Shown: piece after piece, positions 29,102-63,587 of the stretch
How positions within the stretch are numbered: position 1 is the first letter of the stretch
Layout of the letters: each line of letters opens with the position of its first letter
Assembly (NCBI GenBank): GCA_902521955.1
Contig: CABYTP010000002.1
Coordinates: 55,404-119,403, forward strand
Source: an uncultured Candidatus Actinomarina sp.
GTDB lineage: Bacteria > Actinomycetota > Acidimicrobiia > Actinomarinales > Actinomarinaceae
Direction of reading: 5' to 3'
DNA length: 64,000 bases
Notes under the pieces: generated by a model
Told to the model about the DNA's origin: nothing
What the model saw: only the letters and a program-made list of their open reading frames with translations
Databases searched by the model: none
Translations under genes and position numbers: made by a program

Positions 29102-29858
29102 ACGTCTTCTTTTTATTTCTACAGGAATTCTTTTAGTTACTACTTTAATAGTTGGTATGTTTGGGGTGGTACCTCTACCTGAATATGATTTAATTACAGA
29201 AGATTATAATTTTGAAGGAAAGGTCATTTATCATGTTGAAGTTCAAACAAAAAATATTATCCCACCAGCTCCAGATATTATGGATAATTGCATTTTATAT
29301 GTAGATCTTTCAGAAAAACCTATAAAAGAAAAAAAGATAATTTGTAATAGTGATCTTTATGACTATTCATACGATATTTATTTTTATGATGCTGAAATAT
29401 ATCAAGAAAACAGCATTCTTTTGAGATACTGGGATTCACAATCGGATAATGAACAAAAAGCCCTATTGGTAAATATTGACACTGGTCAAGTAACTGATGA
29501 AATAGCACTCAATTTTTCAAATTATGAAAATAATAAAATGAACGTCTACGGTGAAAAATTAATTGAACCTTGGGATACATCTGATTATGAAACAAGATTA
29601 ATTGGAATCTACTATGTAAATAGAACTGAAACAATAGAAGTTTTTAGTTCGAAAGCCCCTACTAATTATTATTATGAATCTCTCCATTGGTCACCAGATG
29701 GAAATAATATCATTGCCGGTGACTCAGAAAATAATCTCATCATATTTTCAAAAGATAAAACATCTAAGCCCGCGCAAATAGATTTTGAAAATTTGCAAAT
29801 TGAGATGTTTGATGATGATAGAAGAGTGTTAATTGGTGTATTGGGATGGACAAATTAA
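29091..29858 (+). CDS. hypothetical N-terminally anchored extracytoplasmic protein
   Basis: Single N-terminal TM (LLFISTGILLVTTLIVGMFGVV); start overlaps the stop of the upstream membrane protein (ATGCCAAATAA). Confidence 0.55.
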   Translation: MPNKRLLFISTGILLVTTLIVGMFGVVPLPEYDLITEDYNFEGKVIYHVEVQTKNIIPPAPDIMDNCILYVDLSEKPIKEKKIICNSDLYDYSYDIYFYDAEIYQENSILLRYWDSQSDNEQKALLVNIDTGQVTDEIALNFSNYENNKMNVYGEKLIEPWDTSDYETRLIGIYYVNRTETIEVFSSKAPTNYYYESLHWSPDGNNIIAGDSENNLIIFSKDKTSKPAQIDFENLQIEMFDDDRRVLIGVLGWTN

Positions 29859-30811
29859 TTAAAAGGTTTTTTTGGCCTTACTCCAATCTCGCTGATTACA
29901 TAAGCTGCGCTCTTATTAGCAATTTCAGCAGATTCATTTATAGATAATTTTTTTTGAAGACCGTATAGATACCCTGCAGCAAAAAAATCTCCTGCGCCAG
30001 TTTTATCATTAACTATTGTATCCGTTGCCCCAAAACTATACTCTTGATCATTTGCTAAAATCAAGACTCCCTCTGGACCAAGAGTGCATATTAGCTGTTC
30101 GACATTAGGAAAGTTTTCTAAGAAGTGTTTAATTGAACCATTAGTGGAATCAGATTGAAAAAGGCTATTTAGTTCGTCCTCATTGCAGAAAACATAATCG
30201 ATATTGCTTTTGATGAATTCAATAAAACTATCTCTATGGAGGTCAACGCAAAATACATCTGACAAACTTATAGCATTTTTCCCTCCTGTTTCTTTATTGT
30301 GTTTAGCAGCCTGTAAAAAAGCAGACTTACTTGATGGTTTATCCCATAAATATCCTTCCATATAAACAATTTCTGCTTTTTCTAATTCATCATTGTCTAA
30401 ATCTTCAACTGATAAATGCTCTCCTGCTCCAAGATATGTATTCATAGTTCTTTCTCCATCTGGAGTAATAAAAATTGCACAAAGACCCGTTTGATTGTTT
30501 TCATTTTCATAGACGGTTAAATCTTTTAGGCCTGAATCTTTTAAACTTGATTGGAACTGTTCTCCAAGATCGTCGTTTGATATTTTTCCAATAAATCCTG
30601 CTTGTCCACCAAGTTGGGAAATCCAGTATGCAGTATTAGCAGCAGATCCGCCAGCTTCATAAACTGGATTATTCATATTATGAAGAAGAAAGTTTGAACG
30701 ATCTTTGTCTACTAGAGTCATTCTTGCTTTATTTAAATTTAATTCATCAATTTTAGACTCTTCAATTTGCTGTAAAGAATCAACAAGAGCATTGCCAATA
30801 CAAATTATCAC
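29855..30811 (-). CDS. PfkB-family carbohydrate/nucleoside kinase
   Basis: C-terminal DTTGAGD-like motif (NDKTGAGDFFAAGYLYG) and N-terminal GG dipeptide region typical of the ribokinase/adenosine-kinase fold. Confidence 0.8.
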   Translation of the reverse strand: MIICIGNALVDSLQQIEESKIDELNLNKARMTLVDKDRSNFLLHNMNNPVYEAGGSAANTAYWISQLGGQAGFIGKISNDDLGEQFQSSLKDSGLKDLTVYENENNQTGLCAIFITPDGERTMNTYLGAGEHLSVEDLDNDELEKAEIVYMEGYLWDKPSSKSAFLQAAKHNKETGGKNAISLSDVFCVDLHRDSFIEFIKSNIDYVFCNEDELNSLFQSDSTNGSIKHFLENFPNVEQLICTLGPEGVLILANDQEYSFGATDTIVNDKTGAGDFFAAGYLYGLQKKLSINESAEIANKSAAYVISEIGVRPKKPFN

Positions 30812-30820
30812 AGCTAAATT

Positions 30821-31171
30821 TTAGATGATTTGTCCAGGTTTTCCTTCAGAATTAAAAATTTTTTCTGTAAAGTTTTGAAGATCTTTCATCCCTCCTGATA
30901 GGTTATAAGATTCAATATCTTGAGATGTTATAAAATTAGTCACCCTGCCAGATCTAGCACCCGAACGACAAACAAAAATATACTTTTCACTATCTTTAAA
31001 TCTATCCATGCTTTCAGTGATAATGCCCATAGGTATGTGCTCGGCGCTTTGGTGGTGACCTGCATTCCATTCATCTTGTTCTCGGACGTCAATAAGCTTA
31101 AAGCCATCTTGAATTAAATTTTCAAGTTGTTCTGGCTCAATAGAAGGTGTGTCACTAATACCGGATACCAC
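30821..31171 (-). CDS. single-domain rhodanese (sulfurtransferase)
   Basis: Active-site loop CRSGARS; 116 aa. Confidence 0.8.
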   Translation of the reverse strand: MVSGISDTPSIEPEQLENLIQDGFKLIDVREQDEWNAGHHQSAEHIPMGIITESMDRFKDSEKYIFVCRSGARSGRVTNFITSQDIESYNLSGGMKDLQNFTEKIFNSEGKPGQII

Positions 31172-31991
31172 TTTGACGCTGCCTTAATCTTTTAACTCTT
31201 TCAATAGTTGGAGGATGTGTAGAAAATAATTTACTGAAGCTATTTCCAGAAAAAGCTTTTAAAGGGTCGGAAATAAACAATGAACTAACAGCTGGATTTA
31301 CATTCATAGGGACTTTTGAAAATCTATCAATCTTTTCAAGTGCAGATGCTAAAGCTAAGGGATTACCCGAAATTTCTGCTCCAGTTTTATCTGCTCCAAA
31401 TTCTCTAGTTCTTGAGATTGCCATTCTGATGATTAAAGATGCTATCGGAGCAGCAATAAAAGCGATGACAATGATGGCTGGATGGGTATTTCTATTTCTG
31501 TTTCCACCACCCCAAAATGCCATCCTAGACATAAAGGAAACTGCGGCAGCTAACATCGCTGCAATGCTTGAAACTAATATATCTCTGTTTTTTATGTGTG
31601 ACAGCTCATGAGCGAGAACCCCTTCGAGTTCATCTCTATTTAGTAAAGTTAATATACCTGTTGTAACAGCTACTTTAGCATTTTTAGGATTCCTTCCAGT
31701 AGCAAATGCGTTGGGTTGATCGCTATCAATTACAAATAATTCAGGCATAGGCATCTTCTCTTTTTGAACAAGATGAGAGATTATTTGAGTAACATCTTGA
31801 AACTCCCCAGTTTCTATAGGTCTAGCTCTTGTTGATTTAATAGCTAAACTGCCGGAAAAAAAATAAATAAAAAAATTAAATACAAGAGCAAAAAATAGTG
31901 CGGATACTAAATCAAAACCAAAGGCAGTTGCTGAGAATAAAACAACTAATGTCATTAAAGTAAGTAATGCAGTAGTTTTTACAAAGTTCAT
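31155..31991 (-). CDS. htpX: M48-family protease HtpX
   Basis: HELSHIKNRD zinc motif between TM segments; 278 aa. Confidence 0.85.
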   Translation of the reverse strand: MNFVKTTALLTLMTLVVLFSATAFGFDLVSALFFALVFNFFIYFFSGSLAIKSTRARPIETGEFQDVTQIISHLVQKEKMPMPELFVIDSDQPNAFATGRNPKNAKVAVTTGILTLLNRDELEGVLAHELSHIKNRDILVSSIAAMLAAAVSFMSRMAFWGGGNRNRNTHPAIIVIAFIAAPIASLIIRMAISRTREFGADKTGAEISGNPLALASALEKIDRFSKVPMNVNPAVSSLFISDPLKAFSGNSFSKLFSTHPPTIERVKRLRQRQSGIRY

Positions 31992-32015
31992 AATTATATT
32001 ATAAAAAACTTAAAT

Positions 32016-33035
32016 TTATATTTTTTCAGCAACTAAACAATAAAAGCCACCTAAGCCGTTGGAGTCAAGAATGGCTTTCAAACCATTAAGTTCTGAATTT
32101 ATTTTTAATCTCTCGATGCCTTCAAGACTGGTGTATTGGTTTTTTAAATCATCATAAATATCGTTAAAACCATTTTCTAACAGAAACTCCCTTTGTTGTT
32201 TTAGAGATACGTTATAGCCAAGAGCTTTTAAATTTTCTTTTACCGCAGAAAAATTAATATCATAAGTGATATCAACATTTCCAGGATCATCTATAGGATC
32301 AACCGATAAATGGTGTTTCTTATAAGTCCTTAGAAGAGATTTGTACTTTCTTTTCTTTCTGTTTTTTTGTTCATAACCGTAGTCAAAAAATAAAAAACTT
32401 TTTGGCTGGAACCTACTAACTAAATTAGCAATTAAATTATCAATATTTGTCTGTAGTTCTACTTCATAAATTTTATTAGGTTCAATTTTATTTAAATTAA
32501 TCCAATTAAGTTGCTCATCTCTTATCGGTTGATAAGCATAGCTGAAATCATCTTTACTGATATCAACTACTTTTTCATACCAATCATTTTCTCTATACAC
32601 ACCTATTGAGCATGGAATATTATCTAATATTTCATTTCCATAAACCAAGTCTGCACTCAAGATATTTAGATCCTCATAAGATTTAACACTTAATATTCCT
32701 TTATTATGAATTACTTTTCTAGCAGTACTAGAAAGCTCAACTGCAGTTATGTTTTTTAAACCTATCTGCTCAATTAATGATCCAGTGCCTGACCCAAATT
32801 CAACAATATTTTCATGAAAGTTTTTACTATCAATCCAGCTTCTAATAACTACTCCAAAGTATTTTGATACTTCAGGAGATGTTAAAAAATCTCCTTTTTC
32901 TGAAGATCTCACATTATCGGTATTAAAAAAACCTAATTCAGAATAAAGTGCCTCTTCCATGAAGGTATCAAAATATATAAATTCATTCCTATGATATTTG
33001 CTTTTAATGTAAGAAGTAAAGTTAGCTGTTGACAA
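32016..33035 (-). CDS. COG1565/DUF185 (MidA/NDUFAF7-like) SAM-dependent methyltransferase
   Basis: KGDFLTSPEVSKYFG motif (family consensus GDFiTsPEiSq.FGe) and glycine-rich SAM loop VEFGSGTGSL. The gene lies 3 nt downstream of the nuoN stop. Confidence 0.7.
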   Translation of the reverse strand: MSTANFTSYIKSKYHRNEFIYFDTFMEEALYSELGFFNTDNVRSSEKGDFLTSPEVSKYFGVVIRSWIDSKNFHENIVEFGSGTGSLIEQIGLKNITAVELSSTARKVIHNKGILSVKSYEDLNILSADLVYGNEILDNIPCSIGVYRENDWYEKVVDISKDDFSYAYQPIRDEQLNWINLNKIEPNKIYEVELQTNIDNLIANLVSRFQPKSFLFFDYGYEQKNRKKRKYKSLLRTYKKHHLSVDPIDDPGNVDITYDINFSAVKENLKALGYNVSLKQQREFLLENGFNDIYDDLKNQYTSLEGIERLKINSELNGLKAILDSNGLGGFYCLVAEKI

Positions 33036-33038
33036 GTT

Positions 33039-34454
33039 TTAATTGCCAAAAAATATTGATGACACTTCACCAAGATAGCTAAAAATTCCTGGAAAAATTC
33101 CTGAAATGAATGTTATTAACACGGTAAAAACTCCCACTACTTTTAAGGGGCTCTCAAATTTAAAGCTAGTTTCTGAATCTACATCCTTCAACTCATCCAT
33201 CCATATAACTTTTGAAATTCTTGCATAGTACACCAAAGCTATAACAGCATTTACTGCGCCAACAATTCCTAGTGTTAATCCTATTGGTTCACCCGTACTG
33301 AGCATACTTCTGAATACAACAAATTTTGCAAACCAACCACCTAGTGGGGGTATGCCAGCCAAGGAAAAAAAGAAAATTGTTGTTAAGACTCCTGTAATAG
33401 GTGATTTTTTTGCTATTCCTCCCCATTCATAAAAATTGGTTGATCCTGCATGGTTACTAAATAATTGAACAGTAAGGAATGCACCTAAATTCATAAATGC
33501 ATAAATAATTAGATAAGTGACACTAGCAAATATTCCATCTTGAAAGTTACCCGTAATACCGGCAACAGAAAGTGGGGCTAATATAAAACCTGCCTGTGCA
33601 ATTGAAGAGTATGCAAGAAGCCTAACTGGGTTAGATTGTTGTAATGCAACAAGATTGCCAAGCGTCATAGTTAGTCCTGCAATAATCGCCAAAATTACTC
33701 CCCAGCTTTCACCAGCACTACTAAAGACTTTTGTGAGCAAAATTATAAGCGCAACAAAACCAGTTGCTTTAGAACTTACAGATAAATAAGCAGTTACGGG
33801 TAATGGAGCTCCCTCATATGTATCTGGTGCCCATGAATGAAAGGGAACAATAGAGATTTTAAATCCTATTCCCGAAATTACCAATATTGCACTTAGCAAT
33901 AACACCGGTGAGGATTGAAGTGCTCCATTAATGATAAATGTAGATATTTCAGAAAAAACAATTTTTCCAGTTAAACCATAGAGAAGTGAAAATCCGTAAA
34001 GTATCAAAGATGCTGACAAAACACCAAGTAAGAAAAATTTTATAGCACCTTCATTAGACTTCCTGTCTCCTTTTTTCCAACCAGAGAGAAGAAACATTGG
34101 AGTGGATGCTAATTCTATTCCAATAAAAATGGTGAGTAAGTCTCTAGATGAGCTGACAATGAGTGCGCCCAAGAGAGAGCTCAACAAAAGATAGTAATAT
34201 TCTCCTTGATAATATTTATCACTTTCTATGAAGTTAATTGAAAGAAGAAATGTTAAATATGTTATCAAAATGAAAAGGCCTTTAAAAATAATAGAAAATT
34301 TATCAACAACAAAACTATCTTCAAATGCATATATTGGATTTGTATAGTTAACCCACTGGACTACAAGAGGTGCAAGTGAAAATAGAGTTCCTAAAAGTGC
34401 AAAAGCAGCTACATAGTACTTCGATCTTCTCGGAAGTATTAGGTCTAAAATCAA
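33039..34454 (-). CDS. nuoN: NADH-quinone oxidoreductase subunit N (cluster 1)
   Basis: 471-aa antiporter-like subunit at the operon end. Confidence 0.85.
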   Translation of the reverse strand: MILDLILPRRSKYYVAAFALLGTLFSLAPLVVQWVNYTNPIYAFEDSFVVDKFSIIFKGLFILITYLTFLLSINFIESDKYYQGEYYYLLLSSLLGALIVSSSRDLLTIFIGIELASTPMFLLSGWKKGDRKSNEGAIKFFLLGVLSASLILYGFSLLYGLTGKIVFSEISTFIINGALQSSPVLLLSAILVISGIGFKISIVPFHSWAPDTYEGAPLPVTAYLSVSSKATGFVALIILLTKVFSSAGESWGVILAIIAGLTMTLGNLVALQQSNPVRLLAYSSIAQAGFILAPLSVAGITGNFQDGIFASVTYLIIYAFMNLGAFLTVQLFSNHAGSTNFYEWGGIAKKSPITGVLTTIFFFSLAGIPPLGGWFAKFVVFRSMLSTGEPIGLTLGIVGAVNAVIALVYYARISKVIWMDELKDVDSETSFKFESPLKVVGVFTVLITFISGIFPGIFSYLGEVSSIFFGN

Positions 34455-34519
34455 AGTACCAACTATTGTAAAAACTACAATAAGTTCAGTAGATATTGCA
34501 AAGTAATTTATAGAAATTT

Positions 34520-36088
34520 TTAACCCCCAAAAGCTTTAGATAACATTGCAATTACAGCGTCATTTGTAGCTCCGAAAATTAATTTTGGAAAGACTCCAAT
34601 TAAAATTGTCAATATAACAAGTGGAATCCAGGCTGCTAATTCATATGCGTCAGCATCGTGAAGTTCTTTATCCATCCATTCTTCTGATGGTTCTCCTAGG
34701 TTAACTCTTTGTAGCATCCACAATAAATAACCAGCTGTTAAAACTGTTCCGACTGCACCCGCCACCATAGACGTTCTGAAGACAGTAACATTTAAACCAT
34801 CTAAAGGATTGTAAGCACCTAAGAGTGCCATGAATTCACCCCAAAAACCTGCAAGACCAGGAAGTCCTAATGATGCCATAGCTGTAAAGCCAAGTAGAGC
34901 TCCTGTCTTTGGTAGAAGTTTCATATTTCCACCTAACCTTCCCATGTCTCTTGTATGGTAAGTGTGTGCCATAGATCCAGAAAGGAAAAATAACAAACCT
35001 GTAATAACCCCGTGAGCAACCATTCCAATCATTGCAGCGTTAATACCTATTGGTGTCAAAGATGCAATACCTAGCATGACAAAACCCATATGACCTACAG
35101 ATGAAAAAGCTATAAGACGTTTCAAATCAGTTTGAGCTAAGCAAGCCAATGATCCATAAATTATTCCAATAGCAGATAAAATTGCAATTGCAGGTGCCCA
35201 TGCTTTTGCTTGTTCCGGAAGAATTGGTATTGCAATTCTAACAAATCCATATGAACCGAGTTTAAGCAAAATAGCTGCAAGAAGAACTGAACCTACTGTT
35301 GGTGCAGCTGTATGAGCGTCAGGGAGCCAAGTGTGTAAAGGCCACATTGGTACCTTTACAGCAAAACCTAAAAAGAGAACTGCAAAAACAAGTGTTGCAA
35401 AAGTACCTGTAAAAGCACCTGCTGAACCCAATTCGATTAATTCAGGAATACTAAAGGTTTTATTTCCACGATAGTAAAGCCCAAGAAAACCGAGAAGCAT
35501 AAAAGCAGAGCCAAATAAAGTGAATACAAAAAACTTAATACTTGCATATAGTCTTGTCTCAATCTGATTCTTGAAGCCGGCAACTGTTCTAACAGTTCTG
35601 TCTCCCCAAATACCAATCATGAAATACATTGGTAATAGTACAATTTCAAAAAATACGAAAAATAATATCAAATCTAAGGCAACAAAAGTTCCATTCATTC
35701 CAGTTTCAAGAACAAGTATTAAAGCAAGAAACCCTTTCGGACTTTTTGGTTCTGGTAAGTGCTCTATAGAGTAAATAATTGCTAACACTGTAATAAAGGT
35801 TGACAATACTAATAATGGTAAGGAGATTCCGTCTATTCCTATTTCATAATTAGCATTAATACTCCTAATCCAAGAAATTTTATTACCTAGTTGTAACTTA
35901 TCAGCCGATGAAAAATCGAACTCCAACAATAGTAAAACGCTGAAGACAAAAGTTATTATTGAAGAAACTAATGCAAAAACTTTAATTAGAAATTCTTGGC
36001 CTTTTGGAATAAGTGTTATAACCAATGCACTGACTAGAGGAAAAAAGACTACTGCAGATAGCCCTACCCCATTTGTTAATATTTCCAA
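34520..36088 (-). CDS. nuoM: NADH-quinone oxidoreductase subunit M (cluster 1)
   Basis: 522-aa Mrp-antiporter-like subunit. Confidence 0.87.
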   Translation of the reverse strand: MEILTNGVGLSAVVFFPLVSALVITLIPKGQEFLIKVFALVSSIITFVFSVLLLLEFDFSSADKLQLGNKISWIRSINANYEIGIDGISLPLLVLSTFITVLAIIYSIEHLPEPKSPKGFLALILVLETGMNGTFVALDLILFFVFFEIVLLPMYFMIGIWGDRTVRTVAGFKNQIETRLYASIKFFVFTLFGSAFMLLGFLGLYYRGNKTFSIPELIELGSAGAFTGTFATLVFAVLFLGFAVKVPMWPLHTWLPDAHTAAPTVGSVLLAAILLKLGSYGFVRIAIPILPEQAKAWAPAIAILSAIGIIYGSLACLAQTDLKRLIAFSSVGHMGFVMLGIASLTPIGINAAMIGMVAHGVITGLLFFLSGSMAHTYHTRDMGRLGGNMKLLPKTGALLGFTAMASLGLPGLAGFWGEFMALLGAYNPLDGLNVTVFRTSMVAGAVGTVLTAGYLLWMLQRVNLGEPSEEWMDKELHDADAYELAAWIPLVILTILIGVFPKLIFGATNDAVIAMLSKAFGG

Positions 36089-36096
36089 TTTTCCTC

Positions 36097-38112
36097 CTAT
36101 ATAATAAATAAAATTAATAAACTAATTGTTACTACGCCACCTAAAAATAACATTAAATATTGTTGAGTTCTTCCAGTCTGAAGTAGTTTAACCCTTCCGC
36201 CAAAACTATCAGTACCACTTGATGACATATTCAGAAATCTATCAATACCATTTTGATCTAAATTGTTATAAACAACTCCTCCTAATAATGAAGCGATTTG
36301 GCCAACACCGTTTATAAACCTATCAATGACATTTGTATTAAATTTATCAACGGCTTTTGATATATTAATTTTTATTGGATCAATGATGAATCGAAAATAG
36401 AAATGATCTAAGTAGTATTTATTTTCTAATACTGTCCACACAGGCTGAATCTTAATTTTGTCATCTCCTGTTTCAGCACTGCCTTGCAATTGATATAAAT
36501 AATAACCCAATCCTATTCCAAGTAATCCCGCAATCAAACCACTTGATAATGCAAATAAGTCAAAGCTTTCAGGATGGTATTCGACTATTTTTGTTTTTCT
36601 GGTTGTAACCCAGTCAGTAAAGCCTGTGTAAACACCTGGTATGTTTACCCACCCAGAAGCAATAGCAAAAACTGCCAATGTTAAGAGCGGAGTAGTCATC
36701 ATATTGTGAGATTCATGAGGATGACCATGCCCTCTATATTCTCCTAAAAAAGTTAACGATACTGCTCTTGTCATATAGAAGGCAGTTATAAAAGCGCCTA
36801 AAACAGCTATGAAGAAAAAAGTAGTCTCACCTTCATGGTTAAATGAAGCAAGAATTTCATCTTTTGAGAAAAAACCTGCAAATGGAGGAAGGCCAGCCAA
36901 GGCAACGGTTCCGATAATAAAAGTTGTAAAAGTTTTTGGCATAACTTTTCTTAATCCACCCATCTCAAGCATGCTATTGCTATGGACAGCATGAATTACT
37001 GACCCAGCTCCTAAAAATAAGAGTGCTTTAAAAAAAGCATGTGTCCATAAATGGAACAATGCTGCAGTGTATGCTCCAGATCCAATTGCAGCAACCATAT
37101 AACCTAATTGACTTACCGTAGAATATGCCAAAACTTTTTTTAAGTCATCTTGAACAATAGCTATCAGGCCAGCTCCTAATAGCGTGATAACTCCAAATAG
37201 CATAACAATATCTAATGCTTCAGGAGCCATTGATTTATAGAAAGGAAACATACGTGCTAGTAAATAAACACCAGCAGTTACCATTGTTGCAGCATGCATT
37301 AATGCAGATACAGGTGTTGGACCTGCCATTGCATCAGGCAACCAAACATGAAGGGGGAATTGTGCACTTTTGCCCATGGCTCCAATAAAAAGCAAAATTG
37401 CAGCAGCAAAAGCTACCTTTGATAATTTTTCATAATCGTGTGTTGATTGGTATAGAATTTCTGAAATTCTTAATGTTCCAGTATTGAGAGCCAATATAAT
37501 GATTCCAATCATTAATCCAATATCTGCAATTTTGTTTGTTATGAAAGCTTTCATAGCTGCTGATGAATTATCTTTCTTTTCCCAGTAATGGCCAATTAAT
37601 AAATACGAGCATACTCCTACCAGCTCCCAGCCAATCAAAATTTGTATTAATGTAGGTGAGGAAACTAATACCAACATACTCCCAGCAAACAGTGTTAAAG
37701 AAGTAAAGAAGAAAGTGTATCTTATCTCACCCTCCATATAATTTGTAGCATAAATAAATACGAGCAGGGCGACAGTACCCACAACAAAATACATCATAAT
37801 TGAGAGCCCATCTACTACCCATCCAAATTCGATATCAAATTGACCTATGCTTCCAACATTGACAAAAAATTCACTTGCTACACCTTCTGTTATATGAATA
37901 AACATAAGTGAAACACTGTAAATAAATATGAGGGCAATTGTTCCAAGTGCTATCTCAGCACCTTTATATGGAAGATATTTTCCAATAAATGTAATGAATA
38001 ATGCTGCTACAAAAGGAAGGACAACTAAAGACCAAGAAAACTCAGCTAAAATACCACCATCAGTATAAACAAGTTCAGTCTCTGCTAAAAAATTAGCATC
38101 AAATTTTACCAT
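36097..38112 (-). CDS. nuoL: NADH-quinone oxidoreductase subunit L (cluster 1)
   Basis: 671 aa, antiporter-like plus a long C-terminal extension. Confidence 0.88.
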   Translation of the reverse strand: MVKFDANFLAETELVYTDGGILAEFSWSLVVLPFVAALFITFIGKYLPYKGAEIALGTIALIFIYSVSLMFIHITEGVASEFFVNVGSIGQFDIEFGWVVDGLSIMMYFVVGTVALLVFIYATNYMEGEIRYTFFFTSLTLFAGSMLVLVSSPTLIQILIGWELVGVCSYLLIGHYWEKKDNSSAAMKAFITNKIADIGLMIGIIILALNTGTLRISEILYQSTHDYEKLSKVAFAAAILLFIGAMGKSAQFPLHVWLPDAMAGPTPVSALMHAATMVTAGVYLLARMFPFYKSMAPEALDIVMLFGVITLLGAGLIAIVQDDLKKVLAYSTVSQLGYMVAAIGSGAYTAALFHLWTHAFFKALLFLGAGSVIHAVHSNSMLEMGGLRKVMPKTFTTFIIGTVALAGLPPFAGFFSKDEILASFNHEGETTFFFIAVLGAFITAFYMTRAVSLTFLGEYRGHGHPHESHNMMTTPLLTLAVFAIASGWVNIPGVYTGFTDWVTTRKTKIVEYHPESFDLFALSSGLIAGLLGIGLGYYLYQLQGSAETGDDKIKIQPVWTVLENKYYLDHFYFRFIIDPIKINISKAVDKFNTNVIDRFINGVGQIASLLGGVVYNNLDQNGIDRFLNMSSSGTDSFGGRVKLLQTGRTQQYLMLFLGGVVTISLLILFII

Positions 38113-38411
38113 TTCATCAAATCAAATTCGTTTATGTTAGCAGTTTGCCTATTTCTAAAAAGCATCAATACGATGGCTAGACCAATACCAACCTCTGCAG
38201 CAGCTATTGTAATTATAAAAATAGTAAAAATTTGGCCTTGCATTAATGAATCAGCAAGCATTGAATCAAAAATTATAAAATTAATATTTACAGCATTTAA
38301 TATCAACTCAATTGAAAGAAGAACCATGACCGCATTACGTCTAACCAGAATCCCGTAGATTCCTAATGAAAAAAGAGCGGCAGCTGTTACAAGTACTGGT
38401 TGAACTATCAT
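38106..38411 (-). CDS. nuoK: NADH-quinone oxidoreductase subunit K (cluster 1)
   Basis: 101 aa, 3 TM; conserved Glu in ...AAAEVGIGLA.... Confidence 0.88.
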   Translation of the reverse strand: MIVQPVLVTAAALFSLGIYGILVRRNAVMVLLSIELILNAVNINFIIFDSMLADSLMQGQIFTIFIITIAAAEVGIGLAIVLMLFRNRQTANINEFDLMKW

Positions 38412-38926
38412 ATTTGATCCTCATCAACAAGGGCTTCATCCTTTCTCGCTAAAGTTATTCCGCCAATTAATGCGGCTAATAAAACAAACGACACTATTTC
38501 AAATGGAAAAACAAAACGACTTAATAAAATTTCTCCTAGAAGTTCAGTTGAAGACCCAGATGTAATTACGATTTCACCATCAAATCCATTAATAAGGATA
38601 TAAGAAAAGAGCAAAAATATTGCACCCGATATTGTGGCACCAATTAATTTATTCTTATCATTATCTAACTCAGCATTTTTACCCAATGGAGCTCTTGTAA
38701 TCATTACCCCAAAAAGGAATAGAACTATAACTGCTCCGATGTAAACAAGGACAAGTACCAATGCCACAAATTGTGTGGATAAAAGCAAGAAAAGAGTTGC
38801 AGTAAGTGCAAGGGTGAAAACTAATGATATTGCTGCGTGAATGACATTTGAAGTTGTAACTACTCTTGCTGCTGAGAATAGAAGAAGTAATAAAGTAAAG
38901 TATGTAACGACTTCGTAAATTTCCAT
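38408..38926 (-). CDS. nuoJ: NADH-quinone oxidoreductase subunit J (cluster 1)
   Basis: 172-aa membrane subunit; operon position. Confidence 0.82.
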   Translation of the reverse strand: MEIYEVVTYFTLLLLLFSAARVVTTSNVIHAAISLVFTLALTATLFLLLSTQFVALVLVLVYIGAVIVLFLFGVMITRAPLGKNAELDNDKNKLIGATISGAIFLLFSYILINGFDGEIVITSGSSTELLGEILLSRFVFPFEIVSFVLLAALIGGITLARKDEALVDEDQI

Positions 38927-38927
38927 T

Positions 38928-39413
38928 TTAACTTTCTAAGCCTTGAGTATCAGGTACAGTTTTTAACCAATCGTCTAAACGTTCCTTATTGTGAAGCATG
39001 TCACCCATATTGAATTCAGAATACTCGTACTCAGGTGTCCAAAATAAAGCATCGAAAGGACAAACCTCAACACAGATTCCACAATACATACATAGTGCAT
39101 AATCAATATCAAATCTATCTAGAACAGCTCTACTTCTTTGTCTACCTCCAGGTTTTGAAGGGGGTTGTAATTCTTTATGTCCCTCAATATAAATACACCA
39201 ATCGGGGCATTGTCTTGCACACAACATACAACTAGTGCATGCTTCTTGATCTAAAGCAATAACTCCTCGTGCTCTTGGTGCAACTTTTTCCTTTTCAAAT
39301 GGATAATTTACATTTGGTTTTGAGTGAAATGGAGATAGGGTTTTAAGCATATTGACAATTACTATCTTTATTCCAATTAAGAATCCGGGAACTTTTGGTT
39401 TAAACGTTTTCAT
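38928..39413 (-). CDS. nuoI: NADH-quinone oxidoreductase subunit I (short, 161 aa; 2x[4Fe-4S])
   Basis: Two CxxCxxCxxxCP ferredoxin motifs (CTSCMLCARQCP, CMYCGICVEVCP). Confidence 0.9.
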   Translation of the reverse strand: MKTFKPKVPGFLIGIKIVIVNMLKTLSPFHSKPNVNYPFEKEKVAPRARGVIALDQEACTSCMLCARQCPDWCIYIEGHKELQPPSKPGGRQRSRAVLDRFDIDYALCMYCGICVEVCPFDALFWTPEYEYSEFNMGDMLHNKERLDDWLKTVPDTQGLES

Positions 39414-40384
39414 TAGAATCCAACTTTCATTATTGCAGTTACAAGAATATTAATTAAAGATGCAGGAATAAGTATTTTCCAAGCGAGGTTTTGAAGTTGA
39501 TCTTCTCGAAATCTTGGCTGTGACCACCTAACAGCTACCAATATAAAACCTAAAATAGCAGTCTTTGTTAATAAAACAACAGGTCCATAAAAATTTACCC
39601 ATTCAGTTGGCAAAAGTGGAACATGGTAACCTCCAAGAAATAAAGTCGAAGCAATTGCACATAAAATAAACATATTCATATATTCAGAAATATAAAAAAT
39701 AAGAAATCTAATTCCAGAGTATTCTGTCATAAATCCCATTGTCAGTTCTGATTCACCAATTGGCATATCAAAGGGCACTCTCATCATTTCAGCTGTTGCT
39801 GCAACCATAAATATCAGAAAGCCAACTATCTGGCCACCAACAACAAAAGGTACTCCCCATTCAATTTGTTTTTCTACAATCCCGACTAATGACATTGTTT
39901 CAGCTTGAATAACAACTCCAACAACAGCAAGTATCAGTGGAAGTTCGTACGCGATGAGCTGTCCTGCTGCTCTTAAACCACCCATAAGGGAATATTTGTT
40001 TGCTGATGACCATCCAGCAGTTAATACACCTATAGTTCCTAAAGAGCTTATGGCAAGTGCAAAGAAAACCCCTAATTCTAGATCTGCAACAACCAATGTA
40101 GGGCTCATTGGGACTACAGCAAAAAGCGCAACACAAGAAACCATAACATAAGCCGGAGCCCACTTAAATACTGGTCTGTCCACCTCAGTTGGGATTATGT
40201 CTTCTTTTTGAACAAATTTAAGTATTTCAGCAAGAGGAAATATGAAACCTCTAAGTCCTACATGTAATGGACCCGGTCTTCTCTGCATCCATGAAGCACC
40301 TTTAACATCCATAATAGTAAAAATGATTGCTCCATTTAATGCAGCAAGTGCAAGAAATCCTACCTTGACAAAGACTTCTGTCAT
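39413..40384 (-). CDS. nuoH: NADH-quinone oxidoreductase subunit H (cluster 1)
   Basis: 323-aa NuoH/ND1 family protein (…EYSGIRFLIFYISEYMNMF…). Confidence 0.9.
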   Translation of the reverse strand: MTEVFVKVGFLALAALNGAIIFTIMDVKGASWMQRRPGPLHVGLRGFIFPLAEILKFVQKEDIIPTEVDRPVFKWAPAYVMVSCVALFAVVPMSPTLVVADLELGVFFALAISSLGTIGVLTAGWSSANKYSLMGGLRAAGQLIAYELPLILAVVGVVIQAETMSLVGIVEKQIEWGVPFVVGGQIVGFLIFMVAATAEMMRVPFDMPIGESELTMGFMTEYSGIRFLIFYISEYMNMFILCAIASTLFLGGYHVPLLPTEWVNFYGPVVLLTKTAILGFILVAVRWSQPRFREDQLQNLAWKILIPASLINILVTAIMKVGF

Positions 40385-41577
40385 CTGTCCACATCTCCCA
40401 ATACAAAATCTAAACTACCCATTATGGCAATTAAATCTGGTAGTAAAGCGCCCTCGAGTAGCAAAGGTAAAATAGAAAGATTACTAAATGAAGCTGTTCG
40501 AACTTTAAGCCTATATGGTCCCAACCCTCCATCTGACACTATGTAGTAGCCCATTTCTCCTTTTGGATTTTCTGCCCTTACGTAAGTACGTCCTTTAGGG
40601 ACTTTTATAACTTTAGGTACCTTAGCTTGTAGTGGACCAGAAGGCATTGAGTCAATTGCTTGCAACACTATTTTTGCCGATTCAATCATTTCCTTGACTC
40701 TGACATCCCATCTATCATAACAATCTCCGTTCTCTCCAATAGGAATATCATATTCAAATTGATCATATGGCAAATAATCCATTTGAGTTCTTAAATCAGA
40801 CTTCACTCCTGAAGCCCTAAGTATTGGGCCGGATACTCCAAAGGCTTCTGCAGTCTCAGCAGATAAGATTCCAACATTTTTTGTTCTTTTTTTAAAAACT
40901 TCATTACCACCGATTAAATTTTGAAATTGATCAGCAGCCTCTATTACTTTTTGCATTGCTACTTTTGTATCTCTATAAAATCCAGCAGGTAAATCCTGGA
41001 TATCTTTTTTTGTGGTAGGGCCTGATCCAGCTGCTGGTTTTACTCCACCTATTCGATTAAAGTTTGGATGAAAGCGGCCACCAGTTACTGACTCAATTAA
41101 ATCTAAAACTCTTTCCCTGTCTTCCATTGCATAAAAAATTGGAGTCAATGCACCAACTTCAAGAGCGTACGCTCCATTAAATACAAAATGTGATGAAATT
41201 CTTGCCATCTCATTAAGAATTAACCTGATATGTTTGGCCCTTTCAGGTACTTCGATTTCCATTAATCTTTCTGCACCAGCAATAAATGGGATTTCATTAG
41301 AGAAACCAGCAACCCAATCTATGCGGTTAACAAGTGTAGTGATTTGAGGGTACGATCTCACTTCCGCAAGTTTTTCATAGCCACGATGCATATACCCAAG
41401 AACGGGTTTTACATCATGCACCTTTTCACCATCTACTTTTGCGACCAGTCTAAGTACTCCATGAGTTGATGGGTGTTGAGGACCTATGTTGAGCGTCATG
41501 TCTTCAGTTTCTATCTCTACAGATACAGATGCCTCTGAAAAATTATTAAAATTTTGGGGGTCTAATGTATTAACCAT
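40381..41577 (-). CDS. nuoD: NADH-quinone oxidoreductase subunit D (cluster 1)
   Basis: 398 aa, ...GPQHPSTHGVLRL...GYMHRGYEKL... 49-kDa-subunit signature. It directly abuts nuoH, with no nuoEFG between. Confidence 0.92.
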   Translation of the reverse strand: MVNTLDPQNFNNFSEASVSVEIETEDMTLNIGPQHPSTHGVLRLVAKVDGEKVHDVKPVLGYMHRGYEKLAEVRSYPQITTLVNRIDWVAGFSNEIPFIAGAERLMEIEVPERAKHIRLILNEMARISSHFVFNGAYALEVGALTPIFYAMEDRERVLDLIESVTGGRFHPNFNRIGGVKPAAGSGPTTKKDIQDLPAGFYRDTKVAMQKVIEAADQFQNLIGGNEVFKKRTKNVGILSAETAEAFGVSGPILRASGVKSDLRTQMDYLPYDQFEYDIPIGENGDCYDRWDVRVKEMIESAKIVLQAIDSMPSGPLQAKVPKVIKVPKGRTYVRAENPKGEMGYYIVSDGGLGPYRLKVRTASFSNLSILPLLLEGALLPDLIAIMGSLDFVLGDVDR

Positions 41578-42115
41578 CTACTGACTCATCACTTTCTGAT
41601 TCTTCTGGCATTCCTTCTACGTCAACTTCGCCAGGCCAAGGCTTAACTTCTCTACTAATTAATTCAAAAGACTTCAGCATAGGATTTCCCTCGTATCCAT
41701 CAGGAAGATATAATTTTTCAAGATTTGGATGGTTTTCAAAATTGATTCCAAACATTTCATATGCTTCTCTCTCATGCCAATTAGCACCTGCATATATTTC
41801 TACGAGAGAAGTAATCTTTGGCTCTGATTTATTAATGGTGGTTGATACAGTAACTAAATTGTTATTAGAAACATTAGACAAACATGTAATGATTTCAAAA
41901 CTTGGTGAAACCGTCTCCTTTGGTGCTTCTCCAGTGGAAACTTCATTATCCCAATCTATTGCAGATAGCCATGAGAAAAATTTTAAATCAAATTCATCTT
42001 TAAGTTTTTGATGTGTCTCGATCCACTTAGATGATTCAACCTTGATGTTGATTGTTTCAAATGCTACATCTGTCTTAATAAAATTTTCTTGTATTTTACT
42101 TAAAAATTCTTCCAT
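41570..42115 (-). CDS. nuoC: NADH-quinone oxidoreductase subunit C (cluster 1)
   Basis: 181-aa 30-kDa-subunit family protein with an acidic C-terminus. Confidence 0.85.
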   Translation of the reverse strand: MEEFLSKIQENFIKTDVAFETINIKVESSKWIETHQKLKDEFDLKFFSWLSAIDWDNEVSTGEAPKETVSPSFEIITCLSNVSNNNLVTVSTTINKSEPKITSLVEIYAGANWHEREAYEMFGINFENHPNLEKLYLPDGYEGNPMLKSFELISREVKPWPGEVDVEGMPEESESDESVDG

Positions 42116-42116
42116 C

Positions 42117-42614
42117 TTATATTGGCTCTGTTTGGACTTCTGTCCATTTTTCTTTCATGTCTTCTCCACGAATTTTTTTCTGAAGAAGAATAATTCCTTC
42201 CTGAAGTGCTTCTGGCCTTGGAGGACATCCGGGAACATAAACATCTACAGGAATTAATTGGTCAACTCCCTTTGTGACTGAATAAGAATCCCAATATGGA
42301 CCTCCACTATTTGAACAGGAACCCATAGAAATAACATACTTTGGTTCTGGCATTTGATCGTAGAGCCTTTTAACTGATGGGGCCATTTTATCTGTTACTG
42401 TTCCAGCAACAATCATAAAATCGGCTTGTCTCGGAGATGCGGGTAATGGAATGACTCCTAATCTCATAAAATCGTGTCTCGGCCCACTTACTGCCATAAC
42501 CTCAATTGCACAGCACGCTAACCCGAACTGAAAATACCAAAGTGAGTATGATCTAGCCCAATTAAATACAGATGATATTGGCTTTGGAAGACCGAATTTA
42601 TCAACTATTCCCAT
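42117..42614 (-). CDS. nuoB: NADH-quinone oxidoreductase subunit B (cluster 1)
   Basis: N2-cluster Cys ligands (CCAIE..., [13 protein letters not shown]). Confidence 0.92.
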
Positions 42615-42970
42615 TTGAGTACATCCTTTCTAATAGCGTATATGAGACCAATTAATAAGATGAATATAAAAACAAACATCTCAATTAATCCAAAATAGCC
42701 AAGTTTTTCCAGGTTAATAGCCCATGGAAATATAAATACTGCTTCTACATCAAAAATTACAAATAGTAAACCAAATATATAATACCTAACATATGTTTGG
42801 CTCCATCCGGAACCTACTGGGTCTACACCACACTCATAAGTTTGGAGCTTTTCTGCATAAGGCTTATTAGGCCTAAGGACAGATGCTACACCAAGTAAAA
42901 GCACGACCAAAAAAAGTCCAAATCCTAGCACTGCTGCTATGGTCACATAATCTTGAAAATAAGAAATCAT
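42605..42970 (-). CDS. nuoA: NADH-quinone oxidoreductase subunit A (cluster 1)
   Basis: 121-aa, 3-TM ND3 family protein; first gene of the operon. Confidence 0.88.
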
Positions 42971-43050: not shown

Positions 43051-44139
43051 GTGATTAACAAAAATTTTTTACAAGAAGCAAGTCTGTTACAACTTTCAGA
43101 AGAGATTTTCAGCACCGTTATAAATGATAGAGTGGAATTAAATTCTATTCAGAACCTGTTAACTGAGAAGGTTAAAGAGGCAGAAACAATTAATTTTATA
43201 CTTGCCGATGGACTTGGATATAAAAATTTAATATCACTTGAGACTTCTCTAAAAGAAAACATAAAAAAAATAATAAATACTACATTCCCCTCCTCAACAA
43301 ATGTTGCGCTAACTACGTTTGCAATGATGAGGAATCCCATAGATCATGGAATTCTTGGTTACTACATGTACGATAGAAACAAGTTTGGATTAATTAATGC
43401 ACTTAATTGGAATAATGAAAACAAATCTCTTTTAGGTAATAATCATTTTAAAAATCAAGAATCTATTTGGAAAAAATTAAAATCACTCAATACACATGTG
43501 TCTAACTTTCAACCAGAAAACTTAGTAGGTAGTGCATTGTCAAACTTCCTATATGAAAAAAGCAGTACAGTACCTTATAAAACGCTAGATAATCTTATAG
43601 AAATGCTTTCAGAAGCATCTTTCCTAGAGAATAGATTTAATTTTATTTACTATCCAAATGTCGATATTGCTGGACATATTTTTGGGGTCTATTCTGCTGA
43701 GTGGGAACTTGAAATAAAAAAATTTGAAAAAGCGGTTGAAAGAATTTCTCAAGCAAGTAACAAGAAAACTACAACAATAATTTCAGCTGATCATGGGTTA
43801 TGTAATATTCCACTTGAGAATAGGCATAATTTATCTTACAAAAATAGTATTCAGATATATGGAGACCAACGGTCGGTTTATATAAATGGAACTAGAAGTG
43901 AAGTTGAAAAGGTTTTTTCAAACATACCTGGTGATCTTATTAGTAGATCTGATTTGAAACATCTCTTAAAAGAACCGGGTAATAGCTATATTGAAGCGTT
44001 TTATCCAGATTATTGTTTCCTTCTTAAGGAAAATCACATAATATATCCAAAGCATTTACAAGCTGAACTAAAAGGCTACCACGGTGGACTAACTGAAGAA
44101 GAATTAAAAATTCCAATTATAGAGATTCATAATTTTTGA
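43051..44139 (+). CDS. alkaline-phosphatase-superfamily phosphodiesterase/nucleotide pyrophosphatase-like enzyme (cytoplasmic)
   Basis: N-terminal ILADGLGY metal-Asp motif, ...NVDIAGHIFG... and ...ISADHGL... (DHG) motifs of the type-I phosphodiesterase fold; no signal peptide. Confidence 0.65.
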   Translation: MINKNFLQEASLLQLSEEIFSTVINDRVELNSIQNLLTEKVKEAETINFILADGLGYKNLISLETSLKENIKKIINTTFPSSTNVALTTFAMMRNPIDHGILGYYMYDRNKFGLINALNWNNENKSLLGNNHFKNQESIWKKLKSLNTHVSNFQPENLVGSALSNFLYEKSSTVPYKTLDNLIEMLSEASFLENRFNFIYYPNVDIAGHIFGVYSAEWELEIKKFEKAVERISQASNKKTTTIISADHGLCNIPLENRHNLSYKNSIQIYGDQRSVYINGTRSEVEKVFSNIPGDLISRSDLKHLLKEPGNSYIEAFYPDYCFLLKENHIIYPKHLQAELKGYHGGLTEEELKIPIIEIHNF

Positions 44140-44158
44140 TAAACATATAATTACAAGC

Positions 44159-44953
44159 ATGAGTAAAAAGCTATTGTTGTTTGTTTTTATTTTGGTTTTT
44201 ATTGGTTGTGGTAGTAATGGAATGCAATCAGAGGGCTACCCAGAACCGTTTATAGGCGGAGGAGTTGAGGATATGTCTTTAAGTAGGTCAGAATCAATTT
44301 CAAATTCTTCAACTTCTCAGGGAGATTATATTATCAAAACGGCATATGCCAGCACTGATGTAAGCTCGTCAAATTTTAATAGCACAATTAAAAGTGTAGA
44401 AAATATGGTAAAAAGTTATGGAGGGAATATCTCAAATACATATCTTTCTACTAATTACCAAGGACTTCAAAGTTATAGCTTAACAATAAACATTCCTGCT
44501 GTGGATTTTGAAGAATTTCTTTCTGAAGTTGAAGAACTATCTAGTTTTACGAACATTAGTTCAAATGCAAATGATGTAACTCGGTATGTTGTTGATATTG
44601 ATTCAAGACTGAAATCTTTATATAGTGAAAAAGAAGCATTACAAGATATTAAAGATGAGGCAACTTCTACCTCTGATAAACTTCAGGTTCAGTCTCAATT
44701 AAGGTATATAAATCAAGACATTGAAATGCTCCAGGGACAAAAAGAATTTTATGAAAACTCTACATCGTTTTCTACGCTCACATTAGAAATTAGGGAAGGA
44801 TCTGGTGTGTCACTCTTTTCTTGGAATTATTATGTGCAAAGAGCTTTAGGTTGGACTGAAAGTATTATTGGAATTTCTGTATCGATCTCAATCATCCTTA
44901 TACCAATCGGATTTATATTTTTTGGTATAAGAAAATTAAGAAATAAAAAATAA
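44159..44953 (+). CDS. lipoprotein with C-terminal TM anchor (DUF4349-like architecture)
   Basis: Lipobox FIGCGS after the signal peptide, Ser/Asn-rich and coiled-coil middle region, terminal hydrophobic helix plus KLRNKK. Confidence 0.55.
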   Translation: MSKKLLLFVFILVFIGCGSNGMQSEGYPEPFIGGGVEDMSLSRSESISNSSTSQGDYIIKTAYASTDVSSSNFNSTIKSVENMVKSYGGNISNTYLSTNYQGLQSYSLTINIPAVDFEEFLSEVEELSSFTNISSNANDVTRYVVDIDSRLKSLYSEKEALQDIKDEATSTSDKLQVQSQLRYINQDIEMLQGQKEFYENSTSFSTLTLEIREGSGVSLFSWNYYVQRALGWTESIIGISVSISIILIPIGFIFFGIRKLRNKK

Positions 44954-45028: not shown

Positions 45029-45832
45029 TTAATTTGGTTGATAGGTACCAAAAAAGACTTGCCATGCAAGACATGTCTTAGCTAGTAAGCTAAGCCAGAT
45101 ATATGCTCTCTCACCGTATAGGTAGTCTTTCCATTTTCCAACTTGTTTATATTGCAAAATCATATTTATAGAAAATGTGTTAAAAAATAGGAATATACTC
45201 ACAAATATCCACACTACAAATTGTGGAACTCCTTGAGGATTAGAATCAGTTGCCACTCCATCTCCTATTAAATTTATAAATATAAATATCCACGGAGCAA
45301 CACCAACAAGACAACCCATAATATAACTTGTCCAATCAACTTTTTCTGTATATTGATTATGGACTTCCATCATCCAGCCAAACCAACACATGGCAGCATT
45401 CATAAAGAATATTCCAGCCAAAGCCCAAATATCATAAATTCCAACAAGTAAAGCAATTAAGACGATCATAACTGATGCACTTATTGAATATTCAATCCAT
45501 CGAACTTTGTTAATTCCTTTTGATAAGTCTTCTTTATATTTGTTATAGAAAGGTCCAGAAATCAAATAGTGTGCAACAGCTGATGCAAGTAAGAAAGTAG
45601 CTACTGCTGGTCCAAAATTTGTAACTTCAGTCCAAATTTCTAATTCAGGAATTAAAGCAAAGCTTGAAGGATCCTCAGGTGAACCAACGCCAACAAGTTG
45701 TGTTAAGGTTATCGGTACGACAAAATCTGAATTGACAACTGTTCCAAGCCAAAATAACAAACCACCCTGTATCAGATGAACGGTTCCCATAATAATATTG
45801 AACCTTTTAAGTTTTTTAATTTTTAAATCCAC
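45029..45832 (-). CDS. heliorhodopsin (retinal-binding 7TM photoreceptor, inverted topology)
   Basis: 267 aa, 7 TM. Strong by-eye similarity to heliorhodopsin 48C12 blocks: RFNIIMGTVHLIQ / NSDFVVPITLTQ (N-terminus), RWIEYSISASVMIVLIA (TM3, Glu114 at the counterion position), GERAYIWLSLLAKTCLAWQVFFGT (TM7, Lys252 at the Schiff-base position). GTG start preceded by a GGGGA RBS. Confidence 0.88.
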   Translation of the reverse strand: MDLKIKKLKRFNIIMGTVHLIQGGLLFWLGTVVNSDFVVPITLTQLVGVGSPEDPSSFALIPELEIWTEVTNFGPAVATFLLASAVAHYLISGPFYNKYKEDLSKGINKVRWIEYSISASVMIVLIALLVGIYDIWALAGIFFMNAAMCWFGWMMEVHNQYTEKVDWTSYIMGCLVGVAPWIFIFINLIGDGVATDSNPQGVPQFVVWIFVSIFLFFNTFSINMILQYKQVGKWKDYLYGERAYIWLSLLAKTCLAWQVFFGTYQPN

Positions 45833-57122: not shown

Positions 57123-57257
57123 CTATTCCTCTAAATTTTCATTCTTTTGTTTATTTCTAAGCCAGGTAAGTAATAACGCAGGAATTAAAAACATCAGCAT
57201 TTCATCCCAGCCACCTTGGTGGTGCATTACTGGGGGTGGAATAATCTTAATTAACAT
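57123..57257 (-). CDS. candidate 44-aa membrane peptide translationally coupled to nuoN (cluster 2)
   Basis: MLIKIIPPPVMHHQGGWDEMLMFLIPALLLTWLRNKQKNENLEE. Its ATG overlaps the nuoN stop (TAATG). Too short for the ORF track. Confidence 0.3.
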   Translation of the reverse strand: MLIKIIPPPVMHHQGGWDEMLMFLIPALLLTWLRNKQKNENLEE

Positions 57258-62138: not shown

Positions 62139-62140
62139 AA

Positions 62141-62449
62141 CTATCCTCTTGATACATTTAATACGTCGACGGAGGCTGAGGATTGTTTTCTAAATATTGA
62201 AACAATTATTGCTAAGCCGACCACAACTTCAGCAGCTGCTACAACTAAAACAAAAAATACTGCAATTTGTCCATCTATCTGACCAAAGTGCTTGGATGCA
62301 GCAATAAAAGTTAGATTTACAGCATTTAACATTAATTCAATGCACATAAACATTATTAATGCATTTTTTCGAATCATCATGCCAAAAAATCCAATAGAAA
62401 AAAGAATTGCAGCTAGTGTTAAGTACCAATCTGTAGTGACCTCAAGCAT
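62141..62449 (-). CDS. nuoK: NADH-quinone oxidoreductase subunit K (cluster 2)
   Basis: 102 aa, 3 TM; ~45 % identity by eye to the cluster-1 NuoK. Confidence 0.88.
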
Positions 62450-62969
62450 CTTTATTCCTTATTTTTGAATCATATGCTAAAGCTATTGCAGCAGCGGTAG
62501 CTACAATCAACAAGATAGATATAATCTCGAAAGGGAATATCCAAGTAGTAAAGAGTGTTCCTGCAATTAACTGTGGTGTTCCCTCAACAACATATTCAAC
62601 TGCTGGAAACCAGAGGTTCCAACTAAATTCTGAATTTACCGCTACATAAGCCAATAGAGACATCAAAATTAAGAAAACTCCACTTACCAGAAAGGTTTGA
62701 CCTTTAATTGAATCTGAAGTTTGTTCTTTTTTGTCCACACCTATCATCATTATCACAAAAAGAAATAATGTCATGACTGCACCTGCGTAAACTAGCATCT
62801 GCACCATTGCTACAAATGTTGCATTTAAAGTTATATAAATTATTGCAAGAGAAACTAATGTCATGACTAAGCCCATGGCATTATGAACAGGATTTTTTGC
62901 AAAGACTACTATGAGTGCTCCGATAATCAATAAAGAAGCAGGGAGGAAAAAAATTAAGAGTTCAAACAA
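62442..62969 (-). CDS. nuoJ: NADH-quinone oxidoreductase subunit J (cluster 2)
   Basis: 175-aa membrane subunit. Confidence 0.82.
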
Positions 62970-63584: not shown

Positions 63585-63587
63585 AAT

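Follow-up and report, generated by a model that had tools for sequence, protein, structure and literature searches.

Among the closest described systems is that of mitochondrial respiratory complex I, where human NDUFAF7 methylates the arginine of a conserved HRGxE motif in the subunit NDUFS2 (PMC3829151). The modified residue is R85 of the bovine 49-kDa subunit, R121 in Yarrowia and R65 of the Paracoccus subunit Nqo4 (PMC3750175; PMC8042128), and in Paracoccus it is symmetrically dimethylated (Carroll et al. 2013, PMC3750175). Thermus thermophilus has a threonine in place of the target arginine (PMC3750175), and in Thermus an arginine of Nqo6 occupies the same space beside the iron-sulphur (Fe-S) cluster N2 (PMC8042128). 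The present analysis concerns a 64,000-nt stretch of DNA from an uncultured Candidatus Actinomarina sp. (contig CABYTP010000002.1, positions 55,404 to 119,403; hereafter the window, to which coordinates refer unless a contig is named). At positions 32016..33035 of the minus strand it encodes a 339-aa S-adenosylmethionine (SAM)-dependent methyltransferase (MT) of the MidA/NDUFAF7 family (PF02636, COG1565), the gene for which starts with a TTG codon directly behind nuoN of an operon for an 11-subunit complex I. This protein is probably a dedicated, operon-encoded MidA-type protein arginine methyltransferase for Arg65 of NuoD in the 11-subunit complex, acting during assembly of the Q-module.

The gene and its position in Ca. 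Actinomarina are already known. Bulzu et al. 2021 (bioRxiv 10.1101/2021.02.01.429150), the only relevant work returned by a literature search on COG1565/DUF185/PF02636, listed for this group afuABC, heliorhodopsin (HeR), an 11-subunit nuo cluster, NDUFAF7 (K18164/PF02636), htpX, pspE and adenosine kinase, with a 14-subunit nuo cluster nearby. NDUFAF7 was called an assembly factor and, together with htpX and pspE, counted among the accessory factors; NuoD, arginine, methylation, other Acidimicrobiia and an Arg/Thr difference between the complexes are not mentioned. The window represents the same locus and gene order as the 'C11' HeR context of that study, with two plus-strand genes between HeR and nuoA. 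The NDUFAF7 homologue next to nuo genes that the earlier note described is thus not new, since this operon order had been listed and dimethylation of a bacterial NuoD had been reported for Paracoccus in 2013 (PMC3750175). For Rhodobacter capsulatus, a SAM-dependent methyltransferase, urf7, has been reported in the nuo operon (PMC9036352). What is new is the class-wide linkage, including cultured strains, the paralogue-specific swap of arginine and threonine between NuoD and NuoB, and the absence of linkage in loci collected with a presumed proteobacterial profile.

Compared with human NDUFAF7 and Dictyostelium MidA (PDB 5ZTZ/5ZU0/5ZZW), MT has the same PF02636 domain, the same predicted fold (Foldseek E 1.9e-22, TMq 0.80) and the common motifs GDF.T.PE.S, the GxGxG loop, E..D..P, DYG and PG..D.(T/S), and it is predicted to act on the same residue, the HRGxE arginine of the 49-kDa/NuoD subunit. 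It differs in having only about 22% identity, a length of 339 aa against about 400 and no targeting peptide; moreover, it is encoded inside a nuo operon, whereas NDUFAF7 lies elsewhere in the genome, and that operon specifies a complex without the NADH-oxidising module. The Nqo4 subunit of Paracoccus denitrificans resembles the window NuoD in its bacterial HRG motif, the residue number 65 being shared by coincidence. Paracoccus, however, is an alphaproteobacterium with a 14-subunit NADH-oxidising enzyme, and the gene of its presumed methyltransferase is not known to lie in the nqo operon.

Predicted target arginine in the two types of complex I

The NuoD protein of the 11-subunit operon (nuoD, 40381-41577, minus strand) contains His64-Arg65-Gly66 (41380..41388, minus strand) within the sequence LGYMHRGYEKL. 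This HRG triplet aligns with HRG of mitochondrial NDUFS2 and with HTG of T. thermophilus Nqo4, so that Arg65 is the predicted methylation target. The earlier note had placed the methylated arginine in an HRG.EKL loop and had read the motif GYMHRGYEKL in this NuoD; the placement agrees with the published bovine, Yarrowia and Paracoccus positions, and the reading with the coordinates given here. In NuoB of the same operon, the sequence A70-G-T72-V-T (42393..42407, minus strand) places Thr72 at the position of the arginine of Thermus-type NuoB, as in mitochondrial NDUFS7. Paracoccus Nqo6 is presumably also of this threonine type. With threonine at this position in NuoB, the second-sphere arginine of cluster N2 must come from NuoD (PMC8042128).

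The same genome contains a second, 14-subunit nuo cluster, of which the nuoH to nuoN part is found in the window (57257-63908, minus strand) before the cluster runs off its end. The upstream half was recovered from contigs L084 and L085, in which NuoK2 is identical and the flanking genes are shared, giving a complete operon of nuoA to nuoN with nuoE, nuoF and nuoG (L084:913-15193), located some 14 kb upstream of the first cluster's nuoA. Its NuoD reads IIGYLHTGMEK, with threonine at the target position, and its NuoB reads MIVAGRVSQKMAP, with arginine (AGR), a combination resembling that of M. smegmatis and T. thermophilus. The 11-subunit cluster has the opposite arrangement, LGYMHRGYEK (Arg65) in NuoD and AGT (Thr72) in NuoB, and resembles mitochondrial NDUFS2 and NDUFS7. 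Of the two NuoD proteins of this genome, only the one from the operon encoding MT presents the arginine known as the MidA/NDUFAF7 target; the 14-subunit NuoD, lacking the arginine, is not a candidate substrate.

This correspondence is the strongest new argument for methylation of NuoD, and it also explains why MT is linked to the complex without NuoE, NuoF and NuoG. The specific linkage to that complex, which the earlier note had pointed out, is strengthened by it. The pattern extends beyond the window: GYMHRG[YK]EK occurs in all 22 MT-linked 11-subunit NuoD sequences examined, and [AS]GT in the linked NuoB of all four loci read (the window, L171, L173 and L174).

Another peculiarity of the 11-subunit NuoD is Trp88 in the sequence RIDW (residues 86-88, 41314-41322, minus strand), found in 22 of 22 such proteins from Acidimicrobiia (L005-L081, L171, L173, L174), at a position where Thermus, mitochondria and the 14-subunit NuoD of the same organism have RMDY. 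We take this position to be that of the quinone-headgroup tyrosine of canonical complex I, Tyr87 of Nqo4 in T. thermophilus. The substitution suggests that the quinone or acceptor site of the 11-subunit NuoD may be altered.

The methyltransferase and its operon

Membership of MT in PF02636/COG1565 can be regarded as secure, and the overall fold of the family is predicted, a class-I Rossmann methyltransferase core with the N- and C-terminal elements particular to this family. The PF02636 profile (Methyltransf_28; formerly DUF185/COG1565, the family that includes MidA and NDUFAF7) scores MT at 90.8 bits, the cut-off being 23.3 (E 1.2e-25), and the match spans positions 21-243 of the 249 in the profile; none of the NCBIfam models matched. 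The family signature GDFLTSPEVSKYFG (residues 48-61; 32853..32894, minus strand) retains D49, F50, T52, S57 and F60, which are invariant or almost so in an alignment of 30 family sequences. The SAM-binding loop GSGTG (residues 81-85; 32781..32795, minus strand), with conserved G81, G83 and G85, aligns with EMGPGRG of Dictyostelium MidA. The acidic motif NEILDNIP (residues 134-141; 32613..32636, minus strand), in which N134, E135, D138 and P141 are invariant, may serve in arginine binding. All the remaining invariant or near-invariant columns of the family are likewise kept, namely E100, D218/Y219 (DYG) and G252/D255/T257 (PGNVDIT).

The only matches of MT among PDB sequences were 4f3n/4g67 (Burkholderia COG1565), 5ztz (Dictyostelium MidA) and 1zkd. 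The AlphaFold2 (AF2) model has a pLDDT of 95 and a pTM of 0.92, and its top six Foldseek matches in the PDB, 4g67, 5ztz and 1zkd among them, are all COG1565/MidA proteins (E 2.6e-23 to 6e-20, TMq 0.75-0.84); the methyltransferases ranked after them reach only E ~1e-7 and TM ~0.4. The best matches are the COG1565 structures of Burkholderia thailandensis (4F3N/4G67) and Rhodopseudomonas palustris (1ZKD), with phmmer E 6e-15 and Foldseek E 2.6e-23, TMq 0.84; these proteins are uncharacterised, and no nuo genes were seen near MT in the 80 presumed proteobacterial loci described below. Profile, motifs and fold thus bear out the family named in the earlier note from a GDFLTSPEVS..FG motif and a GxGxG SAM loop, and the profile search that could have placed the protein in a different methyltransferase family returned PF02636. 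The gene is under purifying selection, with a ratio of nonsynonymous to synonymous substitution rates (dN/dS) of 0.07-0.11 against close relatives, the values for Nuo subunits being 0.02-0.05.

Among the long homologues (P0124, P0130, P0133, P0136, P0261) no fusion of a Nuo protein with MT was seen. Two of them, P0133 and P0136 (~535 aa), consist of an N-terminal MobA-like NTP-transferase domain (PF12804) fused to a Methyltransf_28 domain with 31-35% identity to MT, which suggests that some family members may have another role.

The stop codon of nuoN occupies 33039-33041 and the TTG codon of MT begins at 33035, leaving a 3-nt spacer, AAC (33036..33038, minus strand), in the junction TAA-AAC-TTG. 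The distance of 3 nt on the same strand is that given in the earlier note, which had not named the strand; the gene and the entire nuo cluster are on the minus strand. TTG is the sole start codon upstream of Met26. Public gene calls often begin at Met26 (314 aa) or in between (324 aa), but the internal ATG was rejected as the start, as residues 6-25 form a conserved and confidently modelled N-terminal helix. The alignment of these residues with the helix of homologues, their pLDDT of 84-94 and the fact that all Actinomarinales orthologues start 3-8 nt past nuoN indicate that TTG is the genuine start. As no Shine-Dalgarno-like sequence was seen 5' of the TTG and the spacer is only 3 nt long, translation of MT is likely coupled to that of nuoN.

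The nuoN gene (33039..34454, minus strand; TIGR01770 NDH_I_N, 357 bits) is the last structural gene of the 11-subunit cluster, preceded by nuoA, B, C, D, H, I, J, K, L and M (34520..42970, minus strand). No nuoE, nuoF or nuoG was found in this cluster, and nuoD is directly followed by nuoH. Adjacent genes overlap by up to 10 nt or are up to 8 nt apart, except for 65 nt between nuoM and nuoN. The same order A, B, C, D, H, I, J, K, L, M, N is found in L005-L024, L048, L074, L171, L173 and L174. Same-strand gaps of 3-21 nt between nuoN and MT imply co-transcription of MT with the operon. Neither a promoter-like nor a terminator-like site was found between the two genes in consensus scans; the promoter and terminator scans of the 29-46.5 kb region gave counts at or below shuffle expectation and are hence uninformative.

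Conservation of the linkage in Acidimicrobiia

Genomes scanned with a profile of 11 close homologues yielded 16 Actinomarinales loci and 64 loci from other Acidimicrobiia, the neighbours of which were scored by tblastn with the window's proteins and, on high-GC loci, by clustering of open reading frames (ORFs) with a filter on GC3. The close homologues and the contigs syntenic with the window belong to Ca. Actinomarina (Actinomarinales, Acidimicrobiia). All 16 Actinomarinales loci contain, in this order, nuoA-N, MT, htpX and the rhodanese and pfkB genes. In the other 64 loci, where MT is 29-35% identical to that of the window, nuoN lies directly upstream, about 100 nt away, in 7 loci; another 9 have it within 4 kb, and 2 more at a distance of 7-9 kb. 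Sixteen of the 64 were too short to judge, and 30 of the 48 informative loci have no nuo genes in the 5-10 kb of upstream sequence available. Every linked cluster that includes both genes has nuoD directly followed by nuoH and is therefore of the 11-subunit type.

Unlinked loci typically have the order tsaE..tsaD, groES, groEL, LLM oxidoreductase, MT, small protein, S8 peptidase and htpX. The small protein (~167 aa, cluster c4) is encoded directly 3' of MT in 26 loci of non-Actinomarinales Acidimicrobiia (L020-L083) and has no Pfam match; it is probably a secreted protein or a lipoprotein. Its gene is often followed by one for an S8 peptidase, located on the opposite strand, and by htpX.

A second MT subgroup, from the order Acidimicrobiales, carries the signature GDFITSPEVGPLFG and is 23-29% identical to the window MT; its nearest relatives are members of the first subgroup, at 35-37% identity. 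Here MT again follows nuoN of a complete 11-subunit operon, with gaps of 21 nt in L171, 12 nt in Actinomarinicola tropica (CP045851.1, L173, where MT occupies 235611-236756) and 16 nt in Rhabdothermincola sediminis (L174). The genes 3' of MT in these three loci are unrelated to those of the window (DUF1360, acs, a HAD or GGDEF protein) and do not include htpX, so that nuo is the constant partner of MT. In addition, L168 has nuoLMN of the 11-subunit type 2.5 kb 5' of MT, and L170 encodes a NuoN-like C-terminus 93 nt 5' of it.

In the loci taken to lie outside this class, no linkage was seen. Among 80 metagenomic loci collected with a profile of more distant homologues, and only presumed to be proteobacterial, none had nuo genes in the sequence of up to 10 kb on either side. 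Two further homologues looked up singly, one GC-poor and possibly alphaproteobacterial and one Firmicute-like, had no nuo genes nearby. Linkage of nuo and MT is thus a conserved trait of Acidimicrobiia and not a general bacterial tendency, and the neighbourhood survey proposed in the earlier note went against the wider expectation, with no linkage in any of the 80 loci or in either of 2 other lineages, and with about 30 of 48 informative loci of the window's own subgroup unlinked. The note had also taken linkage as a hint that the role is ancestral; a case for this can be made only within the class Acidimicrobiia, and not for bacteria overall. In a neighbour-joining tree of MT, all deep branches belong to nuo-linked loci and the unlinked loci group in one derived clade, which suggests, with the reservation that the tree is crude and midpoint-rooted, that the linkage was ancestral and was lost once.

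Further genes are tightly packed 3' of MT on the minus strand (29855..31991), an arrangement kept in all Actinomarinales loci. These are htpX (31155-31991), beginning 24 nt after MT, a rhodanese/pspE-like gene (30821-31171) overlapping htpX by 17 nt, and a pfkB kinase gene (29855-30811) after a gap of 9 nt. On the other side of the operon, two plus-strand genes lie between nuoA and the HeR gene (45029-45832, minus strand; PF18761, E 4e-88); the one at 43051-44139 is phosphodiesterase-like and the one at 44159-44953 lipoprotein-like. Because these two genes intervene, HeR and the nuo operon cannot be on one transcript in this genome, although one 'transcriptional unit' has been suggested in the literature. 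Synonymous divergence between the window (29855-41577) and L006 is about 0.6 for nuoD and nuoH and 1.4-3 from nuoL through pfkB, which indicates a recombination mosaic within the operon.

Proposed function and alternatives

In the proposed mechanism, MT would be transcribed together with the 11-subunit nuo operon, its translation probably being coupled as well, and would methylate Arg65 of NuoD beside Fe-S cluster N2, at the interface of NuoD and NuoB. Symmetric dimethylarginine is the product expected by analogy, and the reaction would take place during Q-module assembly, as for NDUFAF7 acting on NDUFS2 in mitochondria, the modification being likewise present on Arg-65 of Paracoccus Nqo4. The 14-subunit complex, in which the equivalent arginine comes from NuoB, is predicted not to be a substrate. 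Catalytic activity, substrate, type of methylation and assembly role are all inferred, and we consider this function, on balance, moderately well supported.

Several points weigh against it. The presence of the arginine does not imply its methylation, as E. coli NuoCD keeps the equivalent residue unmodified (PMC3750175). A COG1565 gene is not known from E. coli. The function of prokaryotic MidA proteins is an in silico inference only, and a preliminary report has claimed DNA methylation for MidA of Wolbachia (PMC12455994). Identity of MT to the solved or characterised members (MidA, 1ZKD, 4F3N) is 20-22% and its best PDB sequence match is the uncharacterised Burkholderia protein, so that orthology with NDUFAF7 is not established; MT also evolves 2-4 times faster than the Nuo subunits. 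Since none of the 80 distant loci is linked to nuo, though Paracoccus methylates its Nqo4, linkage is neither needed for the function nor diagnostic of it. Within the window's own subgroup, the 30 informative loci without nuo add to this, and htpX is the commoner neighbour: of 64 loci, 42 have it no more than 10 kb downstream of MT and 24 no more than 2.5 kb away.

Some of these observations would fit a genuine MidA-family methyltransferase with a substrate other than NuoD Arg65, for example a different subunit of the complex, a partner in membrane-protein quality control such as HtpX or one of its clients, or a nucleic acid, its place in the operon reflecting co-expression only. The wide retention of htpX, often in loci without nuo, the 0 of 80 result, the Wolbachia claim and the MobA-like fusions, which hint at a different chemistry, all favour such a substrate. 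However, htpX is not a constant partner in both subgroups, as MT of Acidimicrobiales follows nuoN without it; the NuoD/NDUFS2 arginine is the sole substrate that experiments have defined for this family (PMC3829151); and the correspondence between the MT-encoding operon and the arginine-bearing paralogue would be left unexplained. Another substrate is judged unlikely. It is less likely still, and in our view quite improbable, that a housekeeping methyltransferase merely sits at the end of an inherited gene block without functional meaning, since, even though Actinomarinales are syntenic from nuo to the ribosomal-protein and rpoB genes, so that conservation there proves little, and the nuo-MT junction is rearranged in many other Acidimicrobiia, the adjacency survives between subgroups 23-29% identical with wholly different downstream genes, the short same-strand gaps imply co-transcription and the known function of the family concerns exactly complex I.

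If MT does methylate NuoD Arg65, it is possible, as a more tentative proposal than the function itself, that operon-encoded methylation of the NuoD arginine adjacent to N2 is an old trait of the 11-subunit complex of Acidimicrobiia rather than a proteobacterial or mitochondrial invention. It would then mark one of two isoforms with opposite solutions at N2, a methylated arginine from NuoD in one and an unmethylated arginine from NuoB in the other, and the modification would be tied to the Q-module itself and not to NADH oxidation.

The sole direct evidence from bacteria so far is the modification on Paracoccus Nqo4. The locus described here provides evidence that does not depend on homology, namely class-wide operon membership and a target arginine that the linked paralogue alone possesses. 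With its threonine at the target position, the 14-subunit complex of this organism is a built-in negative control, and the prediction is directly testable, the arrangement being present in the cultured Actinomarinicola tropica and Rhabdothermincola sediminis. If it is correct, the known range of arginine methylation in complex I would widen to include Actinomycetota and a complex without the NADH-dehydrogenase module. This would bear on the reason for the methylation, which may concern the potential of cluster N2 or a 'key/lock' between NuoD and NuoB in assembly.

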